Position numbers and translations under genes: made by a program. From Candidatus Helarchaeota archaeon (GTDB lineage Archaea; Asgardarchaeota; Lokiarchaeia; Helarchaeales; RDOG01), in contig JALGVI010000101.1 in the NCBI GenBank assembly GCA_029838215.1, positions 1 to 12,849 of the forward strand: a stretch of 12,849 nucleotides of DNA, given 5' to 3'. Within the stretch, counting starts at the first letter, position 1, and every line of letters begins with the position of its first letter. A model generated the notes under the pieces. That model was not told the origin of the DNA and ran no database searches. It was given only the letters and a program-made list of their open reading frames with translations. Below, piece by piece: positions 1 through 11,858 of this stretch.

Positions 1-1
1 C

Positions 2-130
2 GAAAAATGCCCTTCTTGCGGGCAAAAAAATGAAATCTGGTCCCGCGTGACCGGCTACTATCGCCCCGTAAACTCATACAACCCCGCAAAAAAGGTCGAA
101 TTCAAGTACCGCACTCTATATCAAATATAA
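2..130 (+). CDS. nrdD: 3' end (partial) of anaerobic class III ribonucleoside-triphosphate reductase
   Basis: Not in the ORF track. Translating from nt 2 gives EKCPSCGQKNEIWSRVTGYYRPVNSYNPAKKVEFKYRTLYQI* (TAA 128-130). The CPxCG Zn site followed by SRVTGY-RP...K..E...R is the characteristic NrdD C-terminus. Confidence 0.9.
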   Translation, partial: EKCPSCGQKNEIWSRVTGYYRPVNSYNPAKKVEFKYRTLYQI

Positions 131-336
131 TTTTTGTAACTTCGATAAGTAAATGAAAGAGTCCACATTATTTCTTCCTTTTTTCTGAGTAAATAAATAA
201 TTTAAAGTACATCTCAATTTTGAAATAGTTAAAAAACGAGATTTGATGATTTGAAATTTCTCTCAATAACTATAAATAAATTAATGCCCCTTTTATTCTA
301 TAACAAGGGTTTAGGAATCCGTAAATGGATTAAAGA

Positions 337-355
337 GGAAAATAATTTATTTTCC
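337..355. promoter_or_regulatory. Palindromic operator-like site upstream of the Argonaute gene
   Basis: GGAAAATAA-T-TTATTTTCC: perfect 9-bp arms around 1 nt, ending 47 nt before the ATG at 403. Confidence 0.4.
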
Positions 356-390
356 GATTTAGTGTAAATAAAGGTGTAAACGAGAAGGAA

Positions 391-395
391 GAGGA
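391..395 (+). promoter_or_regulatory. Shine-Dalgarno-like site for the Argonaute gene
   Basis: GAGGA, 7 nt before ATG 403. Confidence 0.6.
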
Positions 396-402
396 TATTT
401 AA

Positions 403-2703
403 ATGTTTAATATCATTCGTAGCAATGAATCAATTCCAAAAAGTATTCAAATATTTGAAATAAATGAGAAGGCTCTTCAATCTGGACTTTCGGAGTGTAG
501 GCGTGCATATTTAGAGTTGGGTTGGAATCTATGGAAGGAAAAGAAGAGTATTTATCTCCTAAATTTAAATCCCGATAATATTAATAAACCTCCAGAATAT
601 ATAGAACCTTTTTTTGATATTTTATACCCATTTCGAAAGAAAAAATATACTTGGAACGAAAACTCTTTTTCTAGAAATGTATTCGCCTTTGCTTTTTTTG
701 CTACATTAGAGTATCAAACGAAATTTAGATCGAAAATTCAGGTTAAACGCCCTTCTGAATTAGGATTGAGGAAGCATCGCCATGAATTCCTTTTTCCTAC
801 ACCAATTATTAGCATAGAGGATATTCCTGTATTCAAGGGTATTTCTTTTCGCCCCATAATTTTAAAAGATGAAGATAGGAATTTTCCCGCATTTTTAGTT
901 AATAGAATAATTCGGGTAAAATCTGGTATTAAAGGGAGCCCCAAGAATTTATTAACTCTATCCTCATTACGCACAGTTCTTTTCTTCAGAGAATTGTCTT
1001 CTATATTAAAAAAATTTGAAACCCCCCTCCAAAATCTATGCATTGGAAATTTCAAATTCTCTATTAACACTGATTTTACTAAATTGAATATTCTTGAAAT
1101 AGAGAAGGAGGAAGAATCTGATGAGATTTTTGAGGAAGAGGAATATACCCTTGAAGATGAGGAATATACTTTTACTGATGAGGAAGAATTATGCGAAGAC
1201 GAATCTGAAGAAATTATTGAGGAATTCAAGATACCTAAAGAAATTCTAGATGAGAGTTTACCAATTTTCCCTATTTCAATACATTCTTATACTTTACAAG
1301 AAACATCTCTAACAGTTGGTGGTAATTTCTGCAGGAAAAAAATGACAACAATGTACATGCTCGAAAAATATGGTCCTTTTTCAGCTAAAAATGATCTTTC
1401 GGTAGTATTTGTCCCAATATATCCCTCAAATCAACCAAGCATACGAAATAAGCTGATAGATTTCTGTAACCATCTCATTAATGGAACTCGAGTGAACCAA
1501 TATCAATTCCCTGGTTTTAATAAATGTTTTAACATTTCTTCACAATCAGTCGATCCATATGAGATTTCTACCCAATCAGACAGTAGAGCGTTCAAATATA
1601 GTATTGAAGCAATCATTAGAGAAGTTAGAAGCAAAATTCCTCAATTGGAAAAGCAATATACCCATTTAAGTAACGCTATTCCATTTTTTATTTTTGGACA
1701 GCAAAGAGAAAAAAGGATACATCAAGGAGAGTTTACCCCTTCTTACCGATTTGTGAAACAGCAGCTAACAGAGATGGGAATCCCGAATCAAACAGTTGTT
1801 CGATTTGATACGTTGAATTATGATAAATGGCGAATATATCCGTTATGGAGCATCGCATCTCAAATATTTTCTAAAATCGGTGGTGTTCCTTGGGTAATCG
1901 AAAGTCATTTAGACCGAAATATGAACCCAATTCATGCTATTATTGGAATAAGATTTGCAAAACGGTATAATCCCATTAATGAAAGAAAGTATATCTTAGG
2001 CGTTTTATCTATAATCACTAGTGATGGTCGATTCAAAGGTTTTATAACTGATTCTTTTGATTATAGCAAAGAAATAGAAGAATATAATTGGATTAGTCGC
2101 CAACACGGTTTAACTCATTTTTATGATGGATTAAAATTATCTCCAGATGATGTAAAAAAATTGTGTTCTGAAATCGTTTCATTTCTTAAGGATAAAATGG
2201 GTTTAATTGATCAATCGGGTAGCATTATTATTCATAGGTTAGGACTTGTTCCAAAACAAGAACAGGAAGAATTTAAACGTTTTTTTGATCGATCCAGTTT
2301 CAATTTAGCCCTTATTTCAATTTCACATTTTTCTTTACGTCATTGTTCGCCTAAAGGGGACATTCAAAGAGGAACATTATTCAAAATTGATGATAAATCT
2401 GCCTATCTATTCACTCAAGGTAGTTGTCAATACAATACTTCACCAACTACGAGAAAGACTTTTAAGCCCAGAAGTTGCCCAAGTGCATTAAGTTTAAAGT
2501 TAACGATTAATGATGGAGTATACTCAGATATTGTTGATGCTTCTAGCGATGTATTATCATTAACTCGAATGAATTGGCGTCATACTACATATGTCCCTAC
2601 AAATTTTCCTGTTTCTCTTCAATATGCATTGTTAGTTGCACAAAATAAAAAGAACGAAATCGAGCCCAAAGGAGATTATCGTGAATTACCCTGGTTTCTC
2701 TAA
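403..2703 (+). CDS. ago: Prokaryotic Argonaute, catalytically inactive PIWI, long-B-like, 766 aa
   Basis: MID 5'-phosphate pocket Y448/K452/Q463/K491 (SYRFVK...GIPNQ...QIFSKIGGVPW). PIWI motifs IIGIRFA, IIIHRLG, RGTLFKIDDKSAYLFTQG and LTRMNWR...PVSLQYA. DEDX acidic positions are replaced (R517, L613, L743). C-terminus is PWFL. L2 motif LQETSLTVGG...YGPFS. Confidence 0.93.
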   Translation: MFNIIRSNESIPKSIQIFEINEKALQSGLSECRRAYLELGWNLWKEKKSIYLLNLNPDNINKPPEYIEPFFDILYPFRKKKYTWNENSFSRNVFAFAFFATLEYQTKFRSKIQVKRPSELGLRKHRHEFLFPTPIISIEDIPVFKGISFRPIILKDEDRNFPAFLVNRIIRVKSGIKGSPKNLLTLSSLRTVLFFRELSSILKKFETPLQNLCIGNFKFSINTDFTKLNILEIEKEEESDEIFEEEEYTLEDEEYTFTDEEELCEDESEEIIEEFKIPKEILDESLPIFPISIHSYTLQETSLTVGGNFCRKKMTTMYMLEKYGPFSAKNDLSVVFVPIYPSNQPSIRNKLIDFCNHLINGTRVNQYQFPGFNKCFNISSQSVDPYEISTQSDSRAFKYSIEAIIREVRSKIPQLEKQYTHLSNAIPFFIFGQQREKRIHQGEFTPSYRFVKQQLTEMGIPNQTVVRFDTLNYDKWRIYPLWSIASQIFSKIGGVPWVIESHLDRNMNPIHAIIGIRFAKRYNPINERKYILGVLSIITSDGRFKGFITDSFDYSKEIEEYNWISRQHGLTHFYDGLKLSPDDVKKLCSEIVSFLKDKMGLIDQSGSIIIHRLGLVPKQEQEEFKRFFDRSSFNLALISISHFSLRHCSPKGDIQRGTLFKIDDKSAYLFTQGSCQYNTSPTTRKTFKPRSCPSALSLKLTINDGVYSDIVDASSDVLSLTRMNWRHTTYVPTNFPVSLQYALLVAQNKKNEIEPKGDYRELPWFL
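1138..1179 (+). repeat. Imperfect 21-bp tandem duplication inside the acidic insert of the Argonaute
   Basis: gaggaatatacccttgaagat / gaggaatatacttttactgat, encoding EEYTLED / EEYTFTD. Confidence 0.75.
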
Positions 2704-3940
2704 AATAAAAAAATTCAAAGATGAAATTAAAACTCATTTAAAGACTTTAATAGATCATTTAGAAAAAAGTCTACTAGAAAATGAGGAACGAAATAATCCA
2801 GAAATACTTATCTTGAATATGGCAAAAATCCGTATTAATACCTTATCATTTGAAGATGATCCTCAAAATAAGAATGAATTGATTATGCTTTTTGAGTCTT
2901 TACTTGACATTGATTTATCCTCTTTTTGGAATAACCCTCAAATTATCCTTCTTATTTGCGTTGTTATGGAATCTATTTCATCTTTATTAGGATTACTTCA
3001 ACTAAAGCAGAAAATTGATGAATTAATTCAGAAGTTTATGAATTTTGAATTTGAATATATTAATAAATGGAGTGTTTCAATTGAAAACGTTTTAACACAA
3101 ACCTTGCCATTTATTGGTTATTTTGACGGTGATAAGAATGTTTTTTTGAAAAAAATTGTTAATATTTGCTTGAATCTAGCTGCTGGGAATATTAAAATTG
3201 TAAATTGGTTGAATTCTCTGCAAATTGCTTTCTTCGAGAATATTAATATAATGAAAACTATTACTGAAATTCCAATAAATAATGAAATTTTATATTATGA
3301 AATTTTTTGGTTATTTAGAAAAAAAACAATCGAGAATGTCTTTGATATTCTTAGTGAGAGACTAGAAGATATTGAAAATGAATACAACATTGGTATTAAA
3401 AGAAATAAAAACATACCACTTCTATTTTTTAAGTGGATTTGTATGGAAATTACATTTTCTTCCCTTCGTGTCGTTGTAGCAAATAGATACTCACTCATAA
3501 CACAAATACTTCCATTTTTTGAATTGGCTCCAGGTGAGTTTGAAAGACTTTGTTTCTGGATAATATGTTCACAAACTTCTAAATGGAAGGAAGTCCAATG
3601 GCTTGGTGCTTCAGGAAGTGAGGGAGGGAAGGACATTCTGGCGAAATGTATACAATCGGATCGTTATTGGATTATACAGTGCAAGAGAGTAAGGAGCTAT
3701 GGTCCAAAATCGTTCCTAAACGAGTTTGGAAAAGTATCTGCTGAAATCCAGAGATATAATGCTGAGGGTTACTTGACTTACCTTGCGCGATCCGCATCAG
3801 ATAGATTAAGAGGAGAAATGAAAAAAAAATCTCGTGAAACAGGTCTCAGAGTTGAAGTAATTGATGATTCAAAAATAGATATGGTAATAAAGCAAAATCC
3901 ATTGTTATTAAAAGAATTTTTTCATAAATCAAATTATTAA
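2681..3940 (+). CDS. Argonaute-associated protein with unknown helical N-terminal region and C-terminal Mrr-like (Mrr_cat-type) PD-(D/E)xK endonuclease, ~419 aa
   Basis: C-terminal ELAPGEFERLC...GASGSEGGKDI (D at 3632)...WIIQCKR (QCK 3677-3685) is the Mrr_cat pattern. The start is moved from the track's TTG 2636 to in-frame GTG 2681, which has AGGAG (2670-2674) 6 nt upstream. ATG 2819 is an alternative start. Confidence 0.82.
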   Translation: MNYPGFSKIKKFKDEIKTHLKTLIDHLEKSLLENEERNNPEILILNMAKIRINTLSFEDDPQNKNELIMLFESLLDIDLSSFWNNPQIILLICVVMESISSLLGLLQLKQKIDELIQKFMNFEFEYINKWSVSIENVLTQTLPFIGYFDGDKNVFLKKIVNICLNLAAGNIKIVNWLNSLQIAFFENINIMKTITEIPINNEILYYEIFWLFRKKTIENVFDILSERLEDIENEYNIGIKRNKNIPLLFFKWICMEITFSSLRVVVANRYSLITQILPFFELAPGEFERLCFWIICSQTSKWKEVQWLGASGSEGGKDILAKCIQSDRYWIIQCKRVRSYGPKSFLNEFGKVSAEIQRYNAEGYLTYLARSASDRLRGEMKKKSRETGLRVEVIDDSKIDMVIKQNPLLLKEFFHKSNY

Positions 3941-3994
3941 GATTTACAAGTCAAGATGGGGGATTAAAAACGCTTACCAGATTATTAAGAAATT

Positions 3995-4104
3995 TCACAT
4001 CCCGACCTGCTCGAAAGTTCCATCAACACGTTATATTATCTTTTTTTTTCAAGTTTTAATGCATAATTGCTGAGTGTTGACAAATCTATTCCTAATTCTT
4101 GGTT
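3995..4104 (-). pseudogene. Possible decayed winged-HTH regulator fragment
   Basis: Minus strand 4104-4036 reads NQELGIDLSTLSNYALKLEKKR*, resembling an HTH recognition helix. After a shift in the 9-A run it continues II*RVDGTFEQVGM*. No start codon was found and there is an in-frame stop just upstream. Confidence 0.3.
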
Positions 4105-4290
4105 CTAATACCAGAAAGAACTATTTTCTCGTCCACTCGGAATTAATGCTTGAGCTCCGTTTGATCTGGACTCAATGGTTCGTGATTTCTCAAAGGCTTC
4201 CACTATAGGCAAAAAAGTCACCGATACTGGCTCGAACCAGAAATTTTTTCAGGGGGGATCGAATTTAATTGAGCACGGGATTTAGTTATT

Positions 4291-4298
4291 TTTATAAA
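4291..4298 (+). promoter_or_regulatory. Candidate archaeal TATA box for the ATPase-HEPN gene
   Basis: TTTATAAA ends 33 nt before ATG 4332, a spacing compatible with a short-leader archaeal transcript. Confidence 0.4.
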
Positions 4299-4331
4299 TG
4301 GAAAAAATATCATTATATTTTTTATAGAATT

Positions 4332-7300
4332 ATGCTTAAATCGAGAGAGGATCTTATGATCTGGTGGGAGAGATTTGGACTTCTCGAAGGTCCATTTGAT
4401 AAAATAAAGGCAATACCAACAAATAAATTAGACAAATTATTAGTAAAAACGTCTATCTTTCAAGAATATGAATTGTTGGCTGAAAAACAAAGAACTTTTT
4501 TTGGAAGGGCCATTCTAATTTACGGTCCGTTTGGTTCAGGGAAAACAACTTTATTTAACTTCATCAAAAAATGCTTTTTTGGTCAAAATATTATCTGTCA
4601 AATTTTAAGATTAAGTGGTCCTTTTGAAACCAGCAAAGAATTAGAAGAAAAATTCTTATCACAACTTTACGAAGCCATAGAACATAGGAAAGGAAAAGAT
4701 ATTGGCTATTATGATATCATTCAATCTCTCAAAATCAAAAAAGACAGGGATAAAATAAATGGATGGATTTTTTTTCTTGATGAATTGCATAAAAATCCAA
4801 ATCCAGAAATAACTTTAGAGTTTTTAAAGAATTCTCAAGGGTTTTTTGAAGATATTTTTGATGAAATTGCTAATGTAGGGTTCTTTGTGGCGGGTGATGA
4901 TAAATGGAATGAACGAATGAAAAAAGCGCCTCAATATTCAGGGACTTTTGAAATTAAGAAAGAAATTAATAAAATTAATTCTAAAGAAGCTTATGAAATA
5001 ATTAAAAGACGATTCATTGATTGTGCTGAAGAAAGAGAGAATATTGAAAAGAATTTCACCAAAATGGTCGAAAAATCTGCAATAGATAAATTATTTCTAA
5101 GTTTAAAGGAAAAAACACCTCGTCAATTATTAATCAAAACCCAACAAGTCTTTGAGAATCTTCCTCCTAACAAAACTAATTTATCTTTAACGGATGTTGG
5201 TTTAGAAATAGAAAACAAGAAATTAGAAACAATTACAAGATATCTTAAAAACATAAGAATAGGAAAAAGCGAAAAACTGAGTAAAGACCAAACAAAGAGA
5301 AGTAAGGCTATATTGAATAAAAAAGTTAAATTAACTAAAAATTTTGAATTAGTATATGAACCAGATACGATTAATTCTTTATTTCAAAAAGTTTTAAATA
5401 AATATTCAAATAAAGAGGAGAAAAAGGCTGTATTAAAAGCCATTTCTAGAATCTATTATTTACGATATATAAAATTAGCAAAGTCTAAGTTAAACAACAC
5501 AATTTTAAGCGATTTAGGGATTGAAGATCCTTTAATAATCAACACATTAATAGAATTCAATGTCCTACATAAGAAGCACGTGAAAATAGAAATTCCAGAT
5601 AAGGAATTTGGATTTAAAGGGGTCACACAATATTCTGAAAATAGATTAACTTTAAATCCAAAGATTTCAAACGCATTTGATAAAATTAAGGGCGATCATA
5701 ATCTATCCCCTGAGGATTATTTGCTCAAAATTTTCATTCCTTTTGATAAACCACCAAAAAGAAAAATTCCTGGAAAAGAAGAAGAAATTTTAAAAAATGA
5801 AACGGTTCAGAATTTTAATGACATTAAAGAAAAATTGAAAAAGTTTGGTTTAAACAGAGCTTCTAATCTATTTAATCGATGTATTTCGAATTATGTTGAA
5901 GTTCTAAGATATCTTAGAAACCCACATGTTCATTTAAAATCTATGGATGTCATATCTCGTCTAGATGGAATGATAGATGATATTTTTCAGGCATATCGCA
6001 TCTATAAAATAATGGATGATGAATATAATTCAGATCCTGCTGATATCCATAATCATTTTGATAATGAAGAATTAATTGAATTTAAGAACCATGTCCAATT
6101 TATAAAAAGTACAGGTAAAATGCCAGATCGTGATGATGCTGAAACCTTATGTGATCTTTTCAATTCGTTTATCAGAGAAGTTATACTTATTTTCATGCAA
6201 GATATTAAATATGATACTGAGCTCCAGATAGATTCTCCAGATTTGACTAAGAAAGATAAAAAAACACTTAGAGAAATTAGAACTTATTTTTTTGATCTAA
6301 GAAAAGAACGTCTTGCATTTGATGAAGCAATTTTTCACTTTGAAAATAAAATAAGATCCTTTATCGTACTATTTTTGAATAACGAATATGAAGAATGGAT
6401 TGATCAATTAGACAGAATAAAAATTAAAGAACAGACGCTAAAAAACAAAATCATAAGTAAAATTAGGCAAGAAAATAAAAAATTGGAGGATATTAAAAAT
6501 CCTTTATGTTTTTCAGATTTTCATGATTTATTGTTGATAATGACAAACAAAAATCTATGGAATAAAAATTTTTGGAAGGTATTTAAAAAGAATAAAAAGA
6601 AAAAATTAATTTCGAAATGGGAGGTAATTGAAGAATTAAGAAATCCATGGGCACATAACAGGGGAAAAGATCCTTCATTCTTAAATAACGTTAAGGAATC
6701 TTTTATGAATATGATTTGGATTCTTGAGAAAATCAATAAAGAAATTCCGGATATTGACCAACGATCAGATCTATACCATTGTGAAGAAATTACGGGAGTT
6801 CAAAGAAAGATATTAGAAAAAACAATTCCGGTTAAAGAAAAGAATATCAAAAAGCCTAAGAAAGTTGATATTATTCAAAAAAAGAAGAAAATTGAAAAGA
6901 AATCCAAACTCAAAACTAAAAAAATTGAAGGATCTAGTAAACCAGATATACAGGAGGAAGAGCTCAAAGAACCCATAATTTCTAAAGAAAAATCAATAAT
7001 TATCCATAATGAAGTTTACGAACGGCTTAAAAACAGGAAAATTGCGAGAAATAATTTTGATAGAATAATTCAATATCTGAGGACATCTGGGTCCTTAGAT
7101 TTTCAAACACTGAAAACCGCTTTAGACCTATTACCAAGTCATCTCGAAGCTATTATTGATTTTCTTGTAGATTTAAATTGGATTAAGACATATGAAACTA
7201 CTGAAGAGGCAGAATTCATAATTTTACAAAACCCTAAATGGTTAAGAAGAGTTGAAGCTAAAAAGAAAAAATTGACCAGAGGTGAATATTCACGAATGAC

Positions 7301-7505
7301 ATCATTTATTAGGTCATTAAAACCCAGAAAACCCATTCTATTAATAAGAGTTCTTGAGAATTCTAAATTCACAGACACTAAACTAAGAAAAATGATAGAA
7401 AAAATAAATGTGGCTAGTCCATCGACTATTAAATTAATTTGGGATAAAGTTAAAGTGAATAAAATCGAAGTAATTAAAGATAAGTTTGGATTTTATGCTA
7501 TTTAG
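4332..7505 (+). CDS. Large P-loop ATPase (AAA/STAND-like) with wHTH, Swt1-like HEPN RNase domain and C-terminal wHTH-like region, ~1057 aa
   Basis: N-terminal WERFGLLEGPF; Walker A GPFGSGKTT (4524-4550); Walker B WIFFLDE (DE at 4779); TPRQLL sensor-type motif. Swt1-like HEPN signature FSDFHDLLLIM..NLWNKNFWKVF followed by ELRNPWAH (RxxxxH, 6639-6656). ATG 4332 is preferred over the track's TTG 4269. Confidence 0.75.
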   Translation: MLKSREDLMIWWERFGLLEGPFDKIKAIPTNKLDKLLVKTSIFQEYELLAEKQRTFFGRAILIYGPFGSGKTTLFNFIKKCFFGQNIICQILRLSGPFETSKELEEKFLSQLYEAIEHRKGKDIGYYDIIQSLKIKKDRDKINGWIFFLDELHKNPNPEITLEFLKNSQGFFEDIFDEIANVGFFVAGDDKWNERMKKAPQYSGTFEIKKEINKINSKEAYEIIKRRFIDCAEERENIEKNFTKMVEKSAIDKLFLSLKEKTPRQLLIKTQQVFENLPPNKTNLSLTDVGLEIENKKLETITRYLKNIRIGKSEKLSKDQTKRSKAILNKKVKLTKNFELVYEPDTINSLFQKVLNKYSNKEEKKAVLKAISRIYYLRYIKLAKSKLNNTILSDLGIEDPLIINTLIEFNVLHKKHVKIEIPDKEFGFKGVTQYSENRLTLNPKISNAFDKIKGDHNLSPEDYLLKIFIPFDKPPKRKIPGKEEEILKNETVQNFNDIKEKLKKFGLNRASNLFNRCISNYVEVLRYLRNPHVHLKSMDVISRLDGMIDDIFQAYRIYKIMDDEYNSDPADIHNHFDNEELIEFKNHVQFIKSTGKMPDRDDAETLCDLFNSFIREVILIFMQDIKYDTELQIDSPDLTKKDKKTLREIRTYFFDLRKERLAFDEAIFHFENKIRSFIVLFLNNEYEEWIDQLDRIKIKEQTLKNKIISKIRQENKKLEDIKNPLCFSDFHDLLLIMTNKNLWNKNFWKVFKKNKKKKLISKWEVIEELRNPWAHNRGKDPSFLNNVKESFMNMIWILEKINKEIPDIDQRSDLYHCEEITGVQRKILEKTIPVKEKNIKKPKKVDIIQKKKKIEKKSKLKTKKIEGSSKPDIQEEELKEPIISKEKSIIIHNEVYERLKNRKIARNNFDRIIQYLRTSGSLDFQTLKTALDLLPSHLEAIIDFLVDLNWIKTYETTEEAEFIILQNPKWLRRVEAKKKKLTRGEYSRMTSFIRSLKPRKPILLIRVLENSKFTDTKLRKMIEKINVASPSTIKLIWDKVKVNKIEVIKDKFGFYAI

Positions 7506-7579: not shown

Positions 7580-7607
7580 CTTATTTATAACAAATATTAT
7601 AAATAAG
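7580..7607. repeat. Perfect 11-6-11 inverted repeat, dif/Xer-like layout
   Basis: CTTATTTATAA-CAAATA-TTATAAATAAG; the arms are exact reverse complements with an ATAA-N6-TTAT core. Confidence 0.7.
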
Positions 7608-9488: not shown

Positions 9489-9573
9489 CATTCAAATTCA
9501 ATAATTTTTAGCATCATGATTTATTATTAAATCAATGATATTGGATTATAAACAAAAAGAAAGGTATCCATTC

Positions 9574-10635
9574 ATGGGAGTCTTGAAGAAACGGAAGAAA
9601 GATAAAAAGGAGACACGTGATGATGTCAGGTCGCGTCTTCACGACTTGCATCCATCTTTGGCAGTTCAGATGATGAAAGCAAATGAGACGGAACAAGATC
9701 AAATATTACGAATGAAAATTGAGATGGAATTAAAGGAGAAAGAACGCCAAAGAGAAGAAACCCAAAAAGCAGAGATTCAACTGCGCATTCAAGAGATAAG
9801 GGAAAAAGCCAGAAAATTGAAAGAACAGAAAGAGGCAAAAAGAACCGATCATGATGAGAAAATTGACAGGTTGGTTAAATTATTTAATGATTTGACCAAG
9901 TTCTACCAACTGATTGCCAGTCCTGACGTGAACACGCGGATCAAGCAGGTATTTCTCGAGTTAAATGAGATAAAATCAGCAATTAAGGAACATTTGGCTT
10001 TGAGTTCAGTTGGACTTGATGTAGATGCCTTTCTCCAAGAGCTCATGATGAAATCGGTCCCTGAGATGAACGAAGAAGAAATCATCCAGTTGAAATTTAA
10101 GATCTTCACCTGGCTTATCACCGTTTTTAATGCTTTGTCTACCGATTTCGCTCGCCTCGATAGGTCTGATGCAAAGCAAGAGGCAAAGTCAAGATTCGTT
10201 CAACTTGAGAATGACTTGAAAATTCAATTAGAAACCATTAGAAAGAATTACGAACATCAGATTCTCGTTGCCTTGATCATTCTTGGAAAGGATACGGGAG
10301 TTCCTTATGTTGCCTATGAATTTGGTTCTCTTTCACTTCAATCGGACTTGATAACGGGTTTTTTATCAGCGATTCAAAGTTTTGCGAGTGAAATCGTGAA
10401 GAGGCAAGCCAAGATGAGGCGACTGACGTTCGCAGAATTCATCATAGAAATGTTTGAGGGAGATAAAAGCATCATGGCACTCATTTTGAAGGGACCGATC
10501 ACGAAAAAACTTCACGATAATTGCACTCACGTGATCCGTGAGTTCGAGGTCGATTTCAGGGATGTATTGACCAATTTTGACGGAAATATAGGACAGTTTC
10601 GACCTTTTATAGAGAAAATATCGGGTTTATTATGA
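9574..10635 (+). CDS. Coiled-coil protein with C-terminal longin/roadblock-like domain (Asgard-type), ~353 aa
   Basis: Charged heptad-rich N-terminal half. From nt 10261: ILVALIILGKDTGVPYVAYEF...DLITGFLSAIQSFASEI...LTFAEFIIEMFEGDKSIMALIL, the pattern of Asgard longin-like domains. ATG 9574 has AAGGT upstream; ATG 9535 is an alternative start. Confidence 0.7.
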   Translation: MGVLKKRKKDKKETRDDVRSRLHDLHPSLAVQMMKANETEQDQILRMKIEMELKEKERQREETQKAEIQLRIQEIREKARKLKEQKEAKRTDHDEKIDRLVKLFNDLTKFYQLIASPDVNTRIKQVFLELNEIKSAIKEHLALSSVGLDVDAFLQELMMKSVPEMNEEEIIQLKFKIFTWLITVFNALSTDFARLDRSDAKQEAKSRFVQLENDLKIQLETIRKNYEHQILVALIILGKDTGVPYVAYEFGSLSLQSDLITGFLSAIQSFASEIVKRQAKMRRLTFAEFIIEMFEGDKSIMALILKGPITKKLHDNCTHVIREFEVDFRDVLTNFDGNIGQFRPFIEKISGLL

Positions 10636-10658: not shown

Positions 10659-11858
10659 GTGGCTCAAGATCGCTCGATTTTTGAACTTTTTCAGAGAGCA
10701 AAGGACTTCGAAAGCAGGAATCAATACGAAGAAGCCATCGCAGCGTATAAATTGATCCTTCAAATCAAGCCAAATCATTATTTTTCTCTTCTTTCATTAG
10801 GTATCAACTATTCGAAGCTTGGAGACTTGGAAAGCTCATCCAGGTACTACGATCTCGCCGATGAAGTGCAACGGCAATTTCAAGAAGACCGTGAGAAATT
10901 TCAGGTCACTATTTCTGCAAGTGAGGAAAAAGAGCTTGAGGATCTAAACGTTGACCAAATTTTGACAGAATTAATCGACGAAGTCAAAAAAGAGAAGGAA
11001 TCTCAGGCAGATATTGATTTGGATGACTTGCTTCAATCCGTAAAGGGCTCCTCTCCAGAAATGACCAATAAACCTGTAATCGTTCGTCCTGCTTCAATGC
11101 CTTCACCAGTAAAAAAGCCGAAAGAAGACATTAACGTGCTTTTAGATCGTGCCTCGCAATTAATCGGGCAAAGAAAATATGACGATGCGCTTCAGATCTA
11201 TAAGACCGTCATTCATCGCGACCCGCAGAATGAACAGGCGTGGTTTCAATCGGCTTTGATATATAAAGAACAAAAAAAATATCACAAGACGGCCATTTAT
11301 TTTCAGAAAGTCCTCGAGCTCAATTCAAAAAACGCGCTGGCTCTCGATTACATAAGCTGGGCATTTTTGAATTTAAAACGCTTTGACAAGACGGTTGAGC
11401 ACGCGAAGATGTCGCTTGAACTCAATTCCGAAAATTTTCAAGCGTGGGTCAATTTAGGAGATGCATATTTTGAATTGGAACAATACAGATATGCTCTTTA
11501 TTGCTATCAGCAAGCCATTACGATTTCTCCAGATCCAGAAATAGAGCGACAGGTCGCGTCCTTAGTGGAGCAAGACGTGAAACCACACGATCCACGAGAT
11601 GAACATTTCAAGATTTGTCCTAAATGTAACGAAAAGATTCGGCAGATTGCGAAATTCTGCGATCAATGTGGCATTTCGTTATTGGAACGCACGCAAGACG
11701 TGATTAAAACCTGCATTATTTGCAGGGAAAATATAGTTTCGGAGAGACCGACAATCTGCATGAGTTGTAACTCGCCATTCCACCGATCTTGCTTGTTAAA
11801 ATGGATTCAGAATTATCAGGTTTGTCCTCATTGTAATCAGAATCCGGGATGGATTTGA
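10659..11858 (+). CDS. TPR-repeat protein with Zn ribbon and C-terminal C4HC3 RING-like domain (putative E3 ligase)
   Basis: TPR consensus blocks (YEEAIAAYKLILQIKP; YDDALQIYKTVIHRDP; AWVNLGDAYFELEQYRYALYCYQQAITISP). Zn ribbon CPKC-x10-CDQC. RING C352-x2-C-x11-C-x2-C-x4-H-x2-C-x3-W-x6-C-x2-C392. GTG start. Confidence 0.85.
   Translation: MAQDRSIFELFQRAKDFESRNQYEEAIAAYKLILQIKPNHYFSLLSLGINYSKLGDLESSSRYYDLADEVQRQFQEDREKFQVTISASEEKELEDLNVDQILTELIDEVKKEKESQADIDLDDLLQSVKGSSPEMTNKPVIVRPASMPSPVKKPKEDINVLLDRASQLIGQRKYDDALQIYKTVIHRDPQNEQAWFQSALIYKEQKKYHKTAIYFQKVLELNSKNALALDYISWAFLNLKRFDKTVEHAKMSLELNSENFQAWVNLGDAYFELEQYRYALYCYQQAITISPDPEIERQVASLVEQDVKPHDPRDEHFKICPKCNEKIRQIAKFCDQCGISLLERTQDVIKTCIICRENIVSERPTICMSCNSPFHRSCLLKWIQNYQVCPHCNQNPGWI

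Follow-up and report, generated by a model that had tools for sequence, protein, structure and literature searches.

A predicted inactive Argonaute and a conserved Mrr-type nuclease partner in a low-GC block of an Asgard archaeon

Do three neighbouring, co-oriented genes in an Asgard archaeon make up one defence system, or do only some of them belong together? The window analysed here is the whole 12,849-bp contig JALGVI010000101.1 of a 3.62-Mb, 94%-complete metagenome-assembled genome (MAG) of a Candidatus Helarchaeota archaeon (GCA_029838215.1). Three co-oriented open reading frames (ORFs) occupy positions 403-7505 (+) and lie in a block (1-7505) of 30.1% GC, compared with 40.4% for the remaining contig. 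They encode a prokaryotic Argonaute (pAgo; gene 1, below simply Ago), an Mrr-type nuclease (gene 2) and an ATPase with a putative HEPN domain (gene 3). A first-pass annotation had recognized this AT-rich trio, and the ORFs are as it described them; it had also proposed that they form a new three-part system in which the Ago senses, the nuclease degrades DNA and gene 3 supplies a second, RNase arm. We observed that Ago and gene 2 recur as a pair in every related locus that could be read, and that gene 3 recurs in none of them. We consider it probable that genes 1 and 2 constitute a two-gene defence module of the long-B/BPAN type, in which a target-triggered Mrr DNase would be the effector, and that gene 3 is separate.

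The Argonaute and the nuclease gene behind it

The two genes and their domains are as follows (model confidence as pLDDT).
403..2703 (+): predicted catalytically inactive, PAZ-less single-chain pAgo, 766 aa
403..1077 (+): N-L1-L2-like (APAZ-equivalent) module, aa 1-225, pLDDT about 80-95
1078..1275 (+): disordered hyper-acidic linker in the PAZ position, aa 226-291, pLDDT <50
1276..2700 (+): MID-PIWI module, aa 292-766
2681..3940 (+): gene 2, putative effector gene, 419 aa from GTG 2681 (database gene call), overlapping the Ago stop codon
2636..3940 (+): longest ORF of gene 2, 434 aa from TTG
2681..3505 (+): all-helical N-terminal domain of gene 2, no fold match, aa 1-275
3506..3937 (+): Mrr-type PD-(D/E)XK nuclease domain of gene 2, aa 276-419

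Two other full-length relatives of the Ago emerged from a word-indexed search of 5.8 billion proteins. A third and more distant relative, P0018 (719 aa), came from exhaustive profile searching of 1.84 billion representatives. Profile searching with the Ago gave 191 matches in all at E <= 0.001. From the encoding contigs, genome searches and a metagenome scan we obtained 13 loci that could be read across the Ago as well as downstream of it. An all-against-all comparison of their ORFs showed that Ago and gene 2 are the only genes common to all 13, and gene 2 stands directly downstream of the Ago each time (13/13). In some loci gene 2 begins 3 nt past the Ago stop; in the others it runs over that stop by 23 nt, or by 50 nt in a single case. 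Pairwise identities of the two proteins correlate across 10 loci with r = 0.977, a value that overstates independence because the loci share ancestry. These data bear out the earlier suggestion that the Ago is tied to an Mrr-type nuclease as its likely effector.

The distribution among genomes follows the same pattern. Four of 400 genomes of the phylum hold the single-chain (fused) Ago family, namely this genome (G000), G144, G160 and G237. A full-length gene 2 accompanies it in three of the four; in G237 the contig stops at the expected gene 2 site. Full-length gene 2 was confined to genomes that also hold the Ago. G232, in which the Ago was not found, carries a decayed gene 2 (G232:C14:78196-78825; residues 203-412, with three in-frame TAA stops) that looks like the remnant of a lost module. 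The close relatives of the Ago come from Promethearchaeota MAGs of the same class as this genome and from marine-sediment metagenomes, in line with the Asgard origin that had been guessed from the window. Profile-profile comparison of gene 2 with the partial ORF downstream of P0018 gave a probability of 0.2% or less. Complex prediction with the full Ago and gene 2 residues 1-234 (score 0.00, mark 0.32) speaks neither for nor against binding.

A Pfam search with the Ago gave no match, and an NCBIfam search returned only a far sub-threshold Argonaute match. The PADLOC pAgo model matched residues 296-748 (E 5.9e-54), and an AlphaFold 2 (AF2) model built on a 42-sequence alignment (mean pLDDT 81.8) has the MID-PIWI fold of the Argonaute superfamily. 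Long Agos align with this model from residue 1 over 534-588 residues, whereas short pAgos align from about residue 290 over only about 380-420 residues; long Agos gain about 140 aligned residues over Agos that consist of MID-PIWI only. The modelled protein has an N-L1-L2 module with PAZ reduced or absent, as long-B-type pAgos do. The N-module gave weak language-model matches to ArgoN/ArgoL1 clusters (0.82-0.83) and no meaningful match in sequence and profile searches against the PDB. For the whole protein, the best PDB sequence matches were short GsAgo (E 4.9e-4), then long-B EcAgo (E 8.5e-4) and RsAgo.

Next to these features of fold stand two motifs. The 5'-phosphate pocket Y448, K452, Q463 and K491 (YKQK) is invariant in 10/10 family members, and all 42 aligned Agos keep its K, Q and K. 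The positions equivalent to the catalytic DEDX residues are R517 (GxDV), L613 (RDG) and L743 in 10/10 full-length family members; these three tetrad positions, the glutamate finger not among them, were placed by conserved flanking motifs. The active DEDX tetrad of long-A-type Agos is thus not present. Because the pocket is kept, the DEDX positions are lost and a disordered segment replaces PAZ, the protein is predicted to be a guide-binding, non-slicing, PAZ-less single-chain Ago, much as the first-pass annotation had read it. The acid-rich stretch in the PAZ position is kept in all aligned family members. It may be a plain linker, or it may mimic nucleic acid and in this way autoinhibit the duplex cleft or the partner nuclease. 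The relative P0017 (227 aa; L069:165-970) stops exactly at the boundary between N-module and acidic linker. Its acidic region continues in another frame on a 971-bp contig, and the truncation reflects a natural split, a frameshift or an assembly error.

Gene 2 had been credited with an intact Mrr site, and this reading held. Its Pfam Mrr_cat matches fall below threshold. In its AF2 model, residues 280-415 make up a C-terminal domain of high confidence (pLDDT about 90) that superposes on Mrr-type nucleases, and the ESM Atlas neighbours of gene 2 are Mrr_cat clusters. Residues E303, D333, Q348 and K350 (E..D..QxK; numbering from the TTG ORF) are invariant in 10 homologues. The protein accordingly combines the restriction-endonuclease-like core and the catalytic residues of Mrr-like PD-(D/E)XK enzymes. 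Residues 1-275 are modelled as all-helical with low to moderate confidence, and searches of PDB, Pfam, NCBIfam and Atlas gave nothing specific for them. Sequence and profile searches with gene 2 against the PDB, including bAgaN, the partner nuclease of the E. coli BPAN system, gave no meaningful match. The PADLOC match is weak (PDC-M58A, E 3e-8).

Two side observations concern the surroundings of the pair. In one subclade of the Agos, one or two beta-CASP/metallo-beta-lactamase genes with an RMMBL domain (about 490-512 aa) stand just upstream of the Ago.
L049:2509-5689, L021:4799-8063, L022:194-1681: upstream beta-CASP/RMMBL genes
RMMBL is an RNA-specificity domain, and these proteins could be guide-processing RNases; the contig of the window begins too near the Ago to reveal any such gene. 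In another locus (L004:2831-6403, MAG contig CAZGJX010000115.1) a co-oriented three-gene cluster that ends with a 639-aa SMC_N/AAA_23 ATPase precedes the Ago pair, and it may be another defence system.

Relatives of the Argonaute and a possible mechanism

The nearest Agos outside the family are about 470 aa long and align to Ago residues 313-765. They come from the same class as this genome or from metagenomes. Four of their loci share a constant three-gene set, with a 207-244-aa protein upstream of the Ago and one of 405-435 aa downstream.
L023:5292-8708: sister-clade three-gene set
L024:8446-11686: sister-clade three-gene set
L025:8439-11855: sister-clade three-gene set
L067:7267-10737: sister-clade three-gene set
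The C-terminus of the 405-435-aa protein matches DUF4145, a family within the HEPN clan, weakly and below threshold. In outline the sister operons resemble a split, HEPN-bearing version of the long-B architecture. L024 is part of a genome of the same class that was assembled as one 4.4-Mb contig, and its 471-aa Ago is adjoined by genes for PCNA and an OLD-like TOPRIM protein. Because these neighbours match the published description, L024 is probably the HrAgo2 locus of 'Ca. Harpocratesius repetitus' (PMC11217426), and the 766-aa family is probably the 'long' part of the HrAgo2 subclade. From the protein lengths, the gene order and the published AfAgo-N precedent we infer that the 766-aa Ago unites the small upstream protein and a short Ago in one fused chain. 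Profile-profile comparison gave a probability of 0.2% or less both for the Ago N-module against the 207-244-aa upstream proteins and for gene 2 against the 405-435-aa downstream proteins.

By analogy with characterized systems, the pair might work as follows. The Ago would load a 5'-phosphorylated guide, likely RNA as in long-B and short systems, and would act as a guide-loaded sensor, with the duplex cleft made by its N-L1-L2 module. On pairing with a complementary invader strand, the MID/PIWI surface would change or the Ago would dimerize. The helical N-domain of gene 2 would then dock on the Ago, and the Mrr domains would be released or oligomerize and degrade DNA indiscriminately. The expected outcome would be abortive infection or plasmid loss. 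Several points weigh against this interpretation. The Ago and gene 2 family is known from genes and predicted models alone. The loci are kin, and the correlation of identities overstates co-evolution. Gene 2 resembles neither bAgaN nor any solved chain in sequence, so that common descent of its helical domain with the Af1317/bAgaN-type domain is conjectural. Finally, the closest relatives outside the family by sequence are the Agos of about 470 aa and not classical long-B proteins, which makes any clade assignment of the Ago tentative.

The alternative that survives best gives the nuclease another task. The Mrr-type protein would mainly generate guides, and interference would come from Ago binding alone or from another effector. 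The chemistry would fit, since PD-(D/E)XK cleavage leaves 5'-phosphates and such ends suit the YKQK pocket. Some pAgos are reported to obtain guides with the help of co-encoded nucleases (PMC11162769). However, a dead Ago with no further conserved partner would have no output, and in BPAN and SPARDA the nuclease is the effector and the guides are mostly RNA (PMC13535254, PMC12205087). We regard a guide generator as unlikely.

A slightly less likely possibility is that the module serves a mobile element, through inter-element competition, addiction, or guide-directed DNA processing in transposition or replication. The block 1-7505 has the lowest GC among 796 7-kb windows of the genome (mean 38.5%, sd 2.1) and is very probably a horizontally acquired island, which would suit such a role. 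So would the setting of the probable HrAgo2 locus among PCNA and TOPRIM genes, and the HrAgo2 authors find their protein unlike the known effector-linked short pAgos (PMC11217426). Yet no integrase, transposase or replication gene is conserved beside the fused Ago family in the 13 loci, and the neighbours are varied and often defence-like; they include an SMC-like ATPase, a PLD protein and a PRTase-CE protein. The defence module of Ago and gene 2, with the nuclease as effector, remains the reading that we favour.

Gene 3 and the rest of the contig

Gene 3 was the source of most of the novelty claimed for the locus, and its boundaries and features are as follows.
4332..7505 (+): P-loop ATPase with putative Swt1-like HEPN and variable C-terminus, independent island gene, 1057 aa from ATG
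4269..7505 (+): longest ORF of gene 3, 1078 aa from TTG
The Walker motifs begin at residue 86 (A, GPFGSGKT) and residue 166 (B, WIFFLDE), and the protein has a weak AAA_22 match. Its HEPN_Swt1 match has E 2.7e-5 and 24.8 bits, compared with a cut-off of 27.5. In the Atlas the ATPase falls among AAA_22, AAA_16, NPHP3_N and KAP-like P-loop proteins; HEPN_Swt1 occurs in one of the clusters listed for it (11% of members). The PADLOC match is weak (mad8, E 3e-3). The Walker and RxxxxH motifs that had been noted are present. RxxxxH motifs begin at R550 and R791, and conservation is limited to the latter motif, which 3/5 homologues keep. A tandem, Cas13-like intramolecular double HEPN was also considered and is unsupported, because the first motif, RNPHVH (R550), is not conserved in the homologues.

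The proposed three-part system would need gene 3 to travel with the Ago pair. All three genes are co-oriented within one low-GC island, and the Walker and RxxxxH motifs of gene 3 look intact in the window, which would fit a second RNase arm. The neighbourhoods of the Ago homologues show otherwise: gene 2 recurs and gene 3 never does. A tblastn search found no gene 3 homologue in the 13 Ago-pair loci, two of which (L045 and L049) extend 10 kb downstream. Beyond gene 2 the other loci have unrelated genes instead, namely a PRTase-CE protein, an opposite-strand PLD protein or small unrelated ORFs. A gene-3-like ATPase is present in seven other genomes of the phylum, and 0/7 hold the fused Ago family, so that among the 400 genomes there is no genome overlap and no recurrent co-occurrence of gene 3 with the pair. 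In G184 the gene-3-like ATPase and a short Ago are on different contigs. Homologues of gene 3 stand alone beside a transposase-like gene or in a DISARM-like context. Within the window, a gap of 391 nt separates gene 2 from the gene 3 ATG, and a TATA-like box lies about 35 nt upstream of this ATG. The first-pass annotation had pointed out this gap (about 390 nt) and the TATA candidate, and had allowed for an independent island gene; this part of it agrees with our results. Because gene 3 is absent from the Ago loci, its homologues have no pAgo neighbours, and the gap and TATA-like box set it apart, we conclude that gene 3 is an independent cargo gene of the island and not part of the Ago module. 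We hold the three-part system to be very improbable. It is equally hard to credit that the Ago-Mrr pair and the ATPase-HEPN protein were recently combined in this single lineage, with the Ago complex or DNA damage triggering the RNase in a two-armed DNase/RNase response.

Gene 3 is probably a defence gene in its own right. We also observed that one homologue (P0165) lies directly upstream of genes for a SNF2 helicase, an Eco57I/MmeI-type methyltransferase, TBP and a DEAD/MZB helicase (L026:6395-16043), a cluster that resembles DISARM.

The edges of the island are visible in the window. Positions 1-128 hold the final ~42 codons of a gene with a C-terminal CxxC motif, presumably the Zn-ribbon tail of an anaerobic ribonucleotide reductase, which it resembles. 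The left edge lies where the GC content falls, directly past this gene. Just beyond gene 3, where the block ends on the right, a perfect 11-6-11 palindrome lies in the intergenic sequence at 7580-7607; judged by its sequence, it may serve as a recombination site or form a hairpin at a transcript end. A tRNA gene scan found none, and a repeat scan listed no flanking repeats above the AT-rich background. A sigma-70 promoter scan gave 38 sites with 38.5 expected, the model being bacterial and uninformative for an archaeon. Outside the island, positions 10659-11858 encode a protein that combines TPR repeats, a zinc ribbon and, at the C-terminus, a RING finger (zf-RING_2 E 7.7e-8), which amounts to a eukaryote-like E3-ligase architecture in an Asgard genome. 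A 366-aa ORF at 9535-10635, with no Pfam match, lies between a MaoC dehydratase gene and the TPR-RING gene.

Comparison with known Argonaute systems

The pair brings no new principle, and the ATPase-HEPN protein, which had made the locus seem exceptional, falls outside the system. The claim of a new system does not stand: the two-gene architecture had already been catalogued (PMC10954474), and the analogue BPAN had been characterized (PMC10620215, PMC13535254). What the pair adds to the inactive Argonaute plus nuclease defence systems is an Asgard-specific and very divergent family; exhaustive profile searching gave no more than the 191 matches mentioned above. A single Asgard clade thereby holds a fused Ago with an Mrr effector and a split form with a weakly HEPN-like partner. 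These fused and split sister forms offer a natural example of the evolution by splitting, fusing and effector swapping that has been proposed for long-B and short pAgos. Tools of the DefenseFinder/PADLOC type would flag the Ago only. The gene 2 effector family, with an N-domain that has no Pfam, NCBIfam or solved-structure match, could join the defence catalogues.

The closest architecture is that of the long-B operons. Manakova et al. 2024 described how AfAgo and an upstream N-L1-L2 protein form a 'long PAZ-less pAgo', and how long-B pAgos, whether split or single-chain, range through all degrees of PAZ loss (PMC10954474). Such pAgos are followed by a conserved downstream alpha-helical domain fused to TM, TIR, HEPN or PD-(D/E)XK (PMC10954474). 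Like the Af1317-type operons of that work (PMC10954474), the window pair has an inactive PIWI, a PAZ-less single-chain Ago and a directly downstream effector gene. In both, the partner has a helical N-region and then a C-terminal PD-(D/E)XK domain, an arrangement present in 13/13 of our loci, and the AfAgo island is also low in GC. The pair differs from the Af1317 type in that its Ago family is Asgard-specific, with Agos of about 470 aa, including probable HrAgo2, as nearest relatives, and carries a roughly 65-aa hyper-acidic disordered insert in the PAZ position. The helical-domain homology of gene 2 to that type is not detectable by sequence.

BPAN of E. coli was characterized experimentally by Song et al. 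2023 and Liu et al. 2026 (PMC10620215, PMC13535254; PDB 23wq). Its bAgaN consists of an N-terminal domain and a C-terminal PD-(D/E)XK DNase, and it joins the MID/PIWI interface only once EcAgo holds guide RNA and target DNA (PMC10620215, PMC13535254). The resulting 8:8 EcAgo-bAgaN assembly is a non-specific DNase that protects against phage (PMC10620215, PMC13535254). As in BPAN, a dead pAgo in the window is followed by a two-domain partner with a C-terminal PD-(D/E)XK domain. In contrast, bAgaN is RecB/Card1-like with a D-EVK motif, and gene 2 is Mrr-like with E..D..QxK. EcAgo also keeps a remnant of the PAZ region, unlike the PAZ-less Ago of the window. The 8:8 assembly has been observed, whereas the window pair is described here from its genes and models.

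Short pAgo systems are organized differently. In S2B (SPARDA; PMC12205087, PMC9097488), a MID-PIWI-only Ago works with a separate, usually upstream protein in which the nuclease is N-terminal to APAZ. The window pair instead has its N-L1-L2 module within the Ago chain and its nuclease at the C-terminus of a downstream protein with a helical, non-APAZ N-domain. Membership in the Mrr-APAZ/SPARDA group is ruled out by this arrangement.

The HrAgo2 subclade is Asgard-specific and predicted inactive, a mix of long and short asAgos that is sister to short pAgos (Bastiaanssen et al. 2024, PMC11217426), and the window Ago family is likewise Asgard-specific and predicted inactive. Unlike the 766-aa Ago, HrAgo2 itself has no N-terminal part. 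At its probable locus the Ago is accompanied by a 207-aa protein and by one of 405 aa that matches DUF4145 weakly. The HrAgo2 paper describes no Mrr partner (PMC11217426). In conclusion, because its architecture was described by Manakova et al. 2024 and has been demonstrated experimentally for BPAN, the pair is a divergent, Asgard-specific member of the catalogued kind in which an inactive Argonaute is joined by a nuclease effector with a helical domain.

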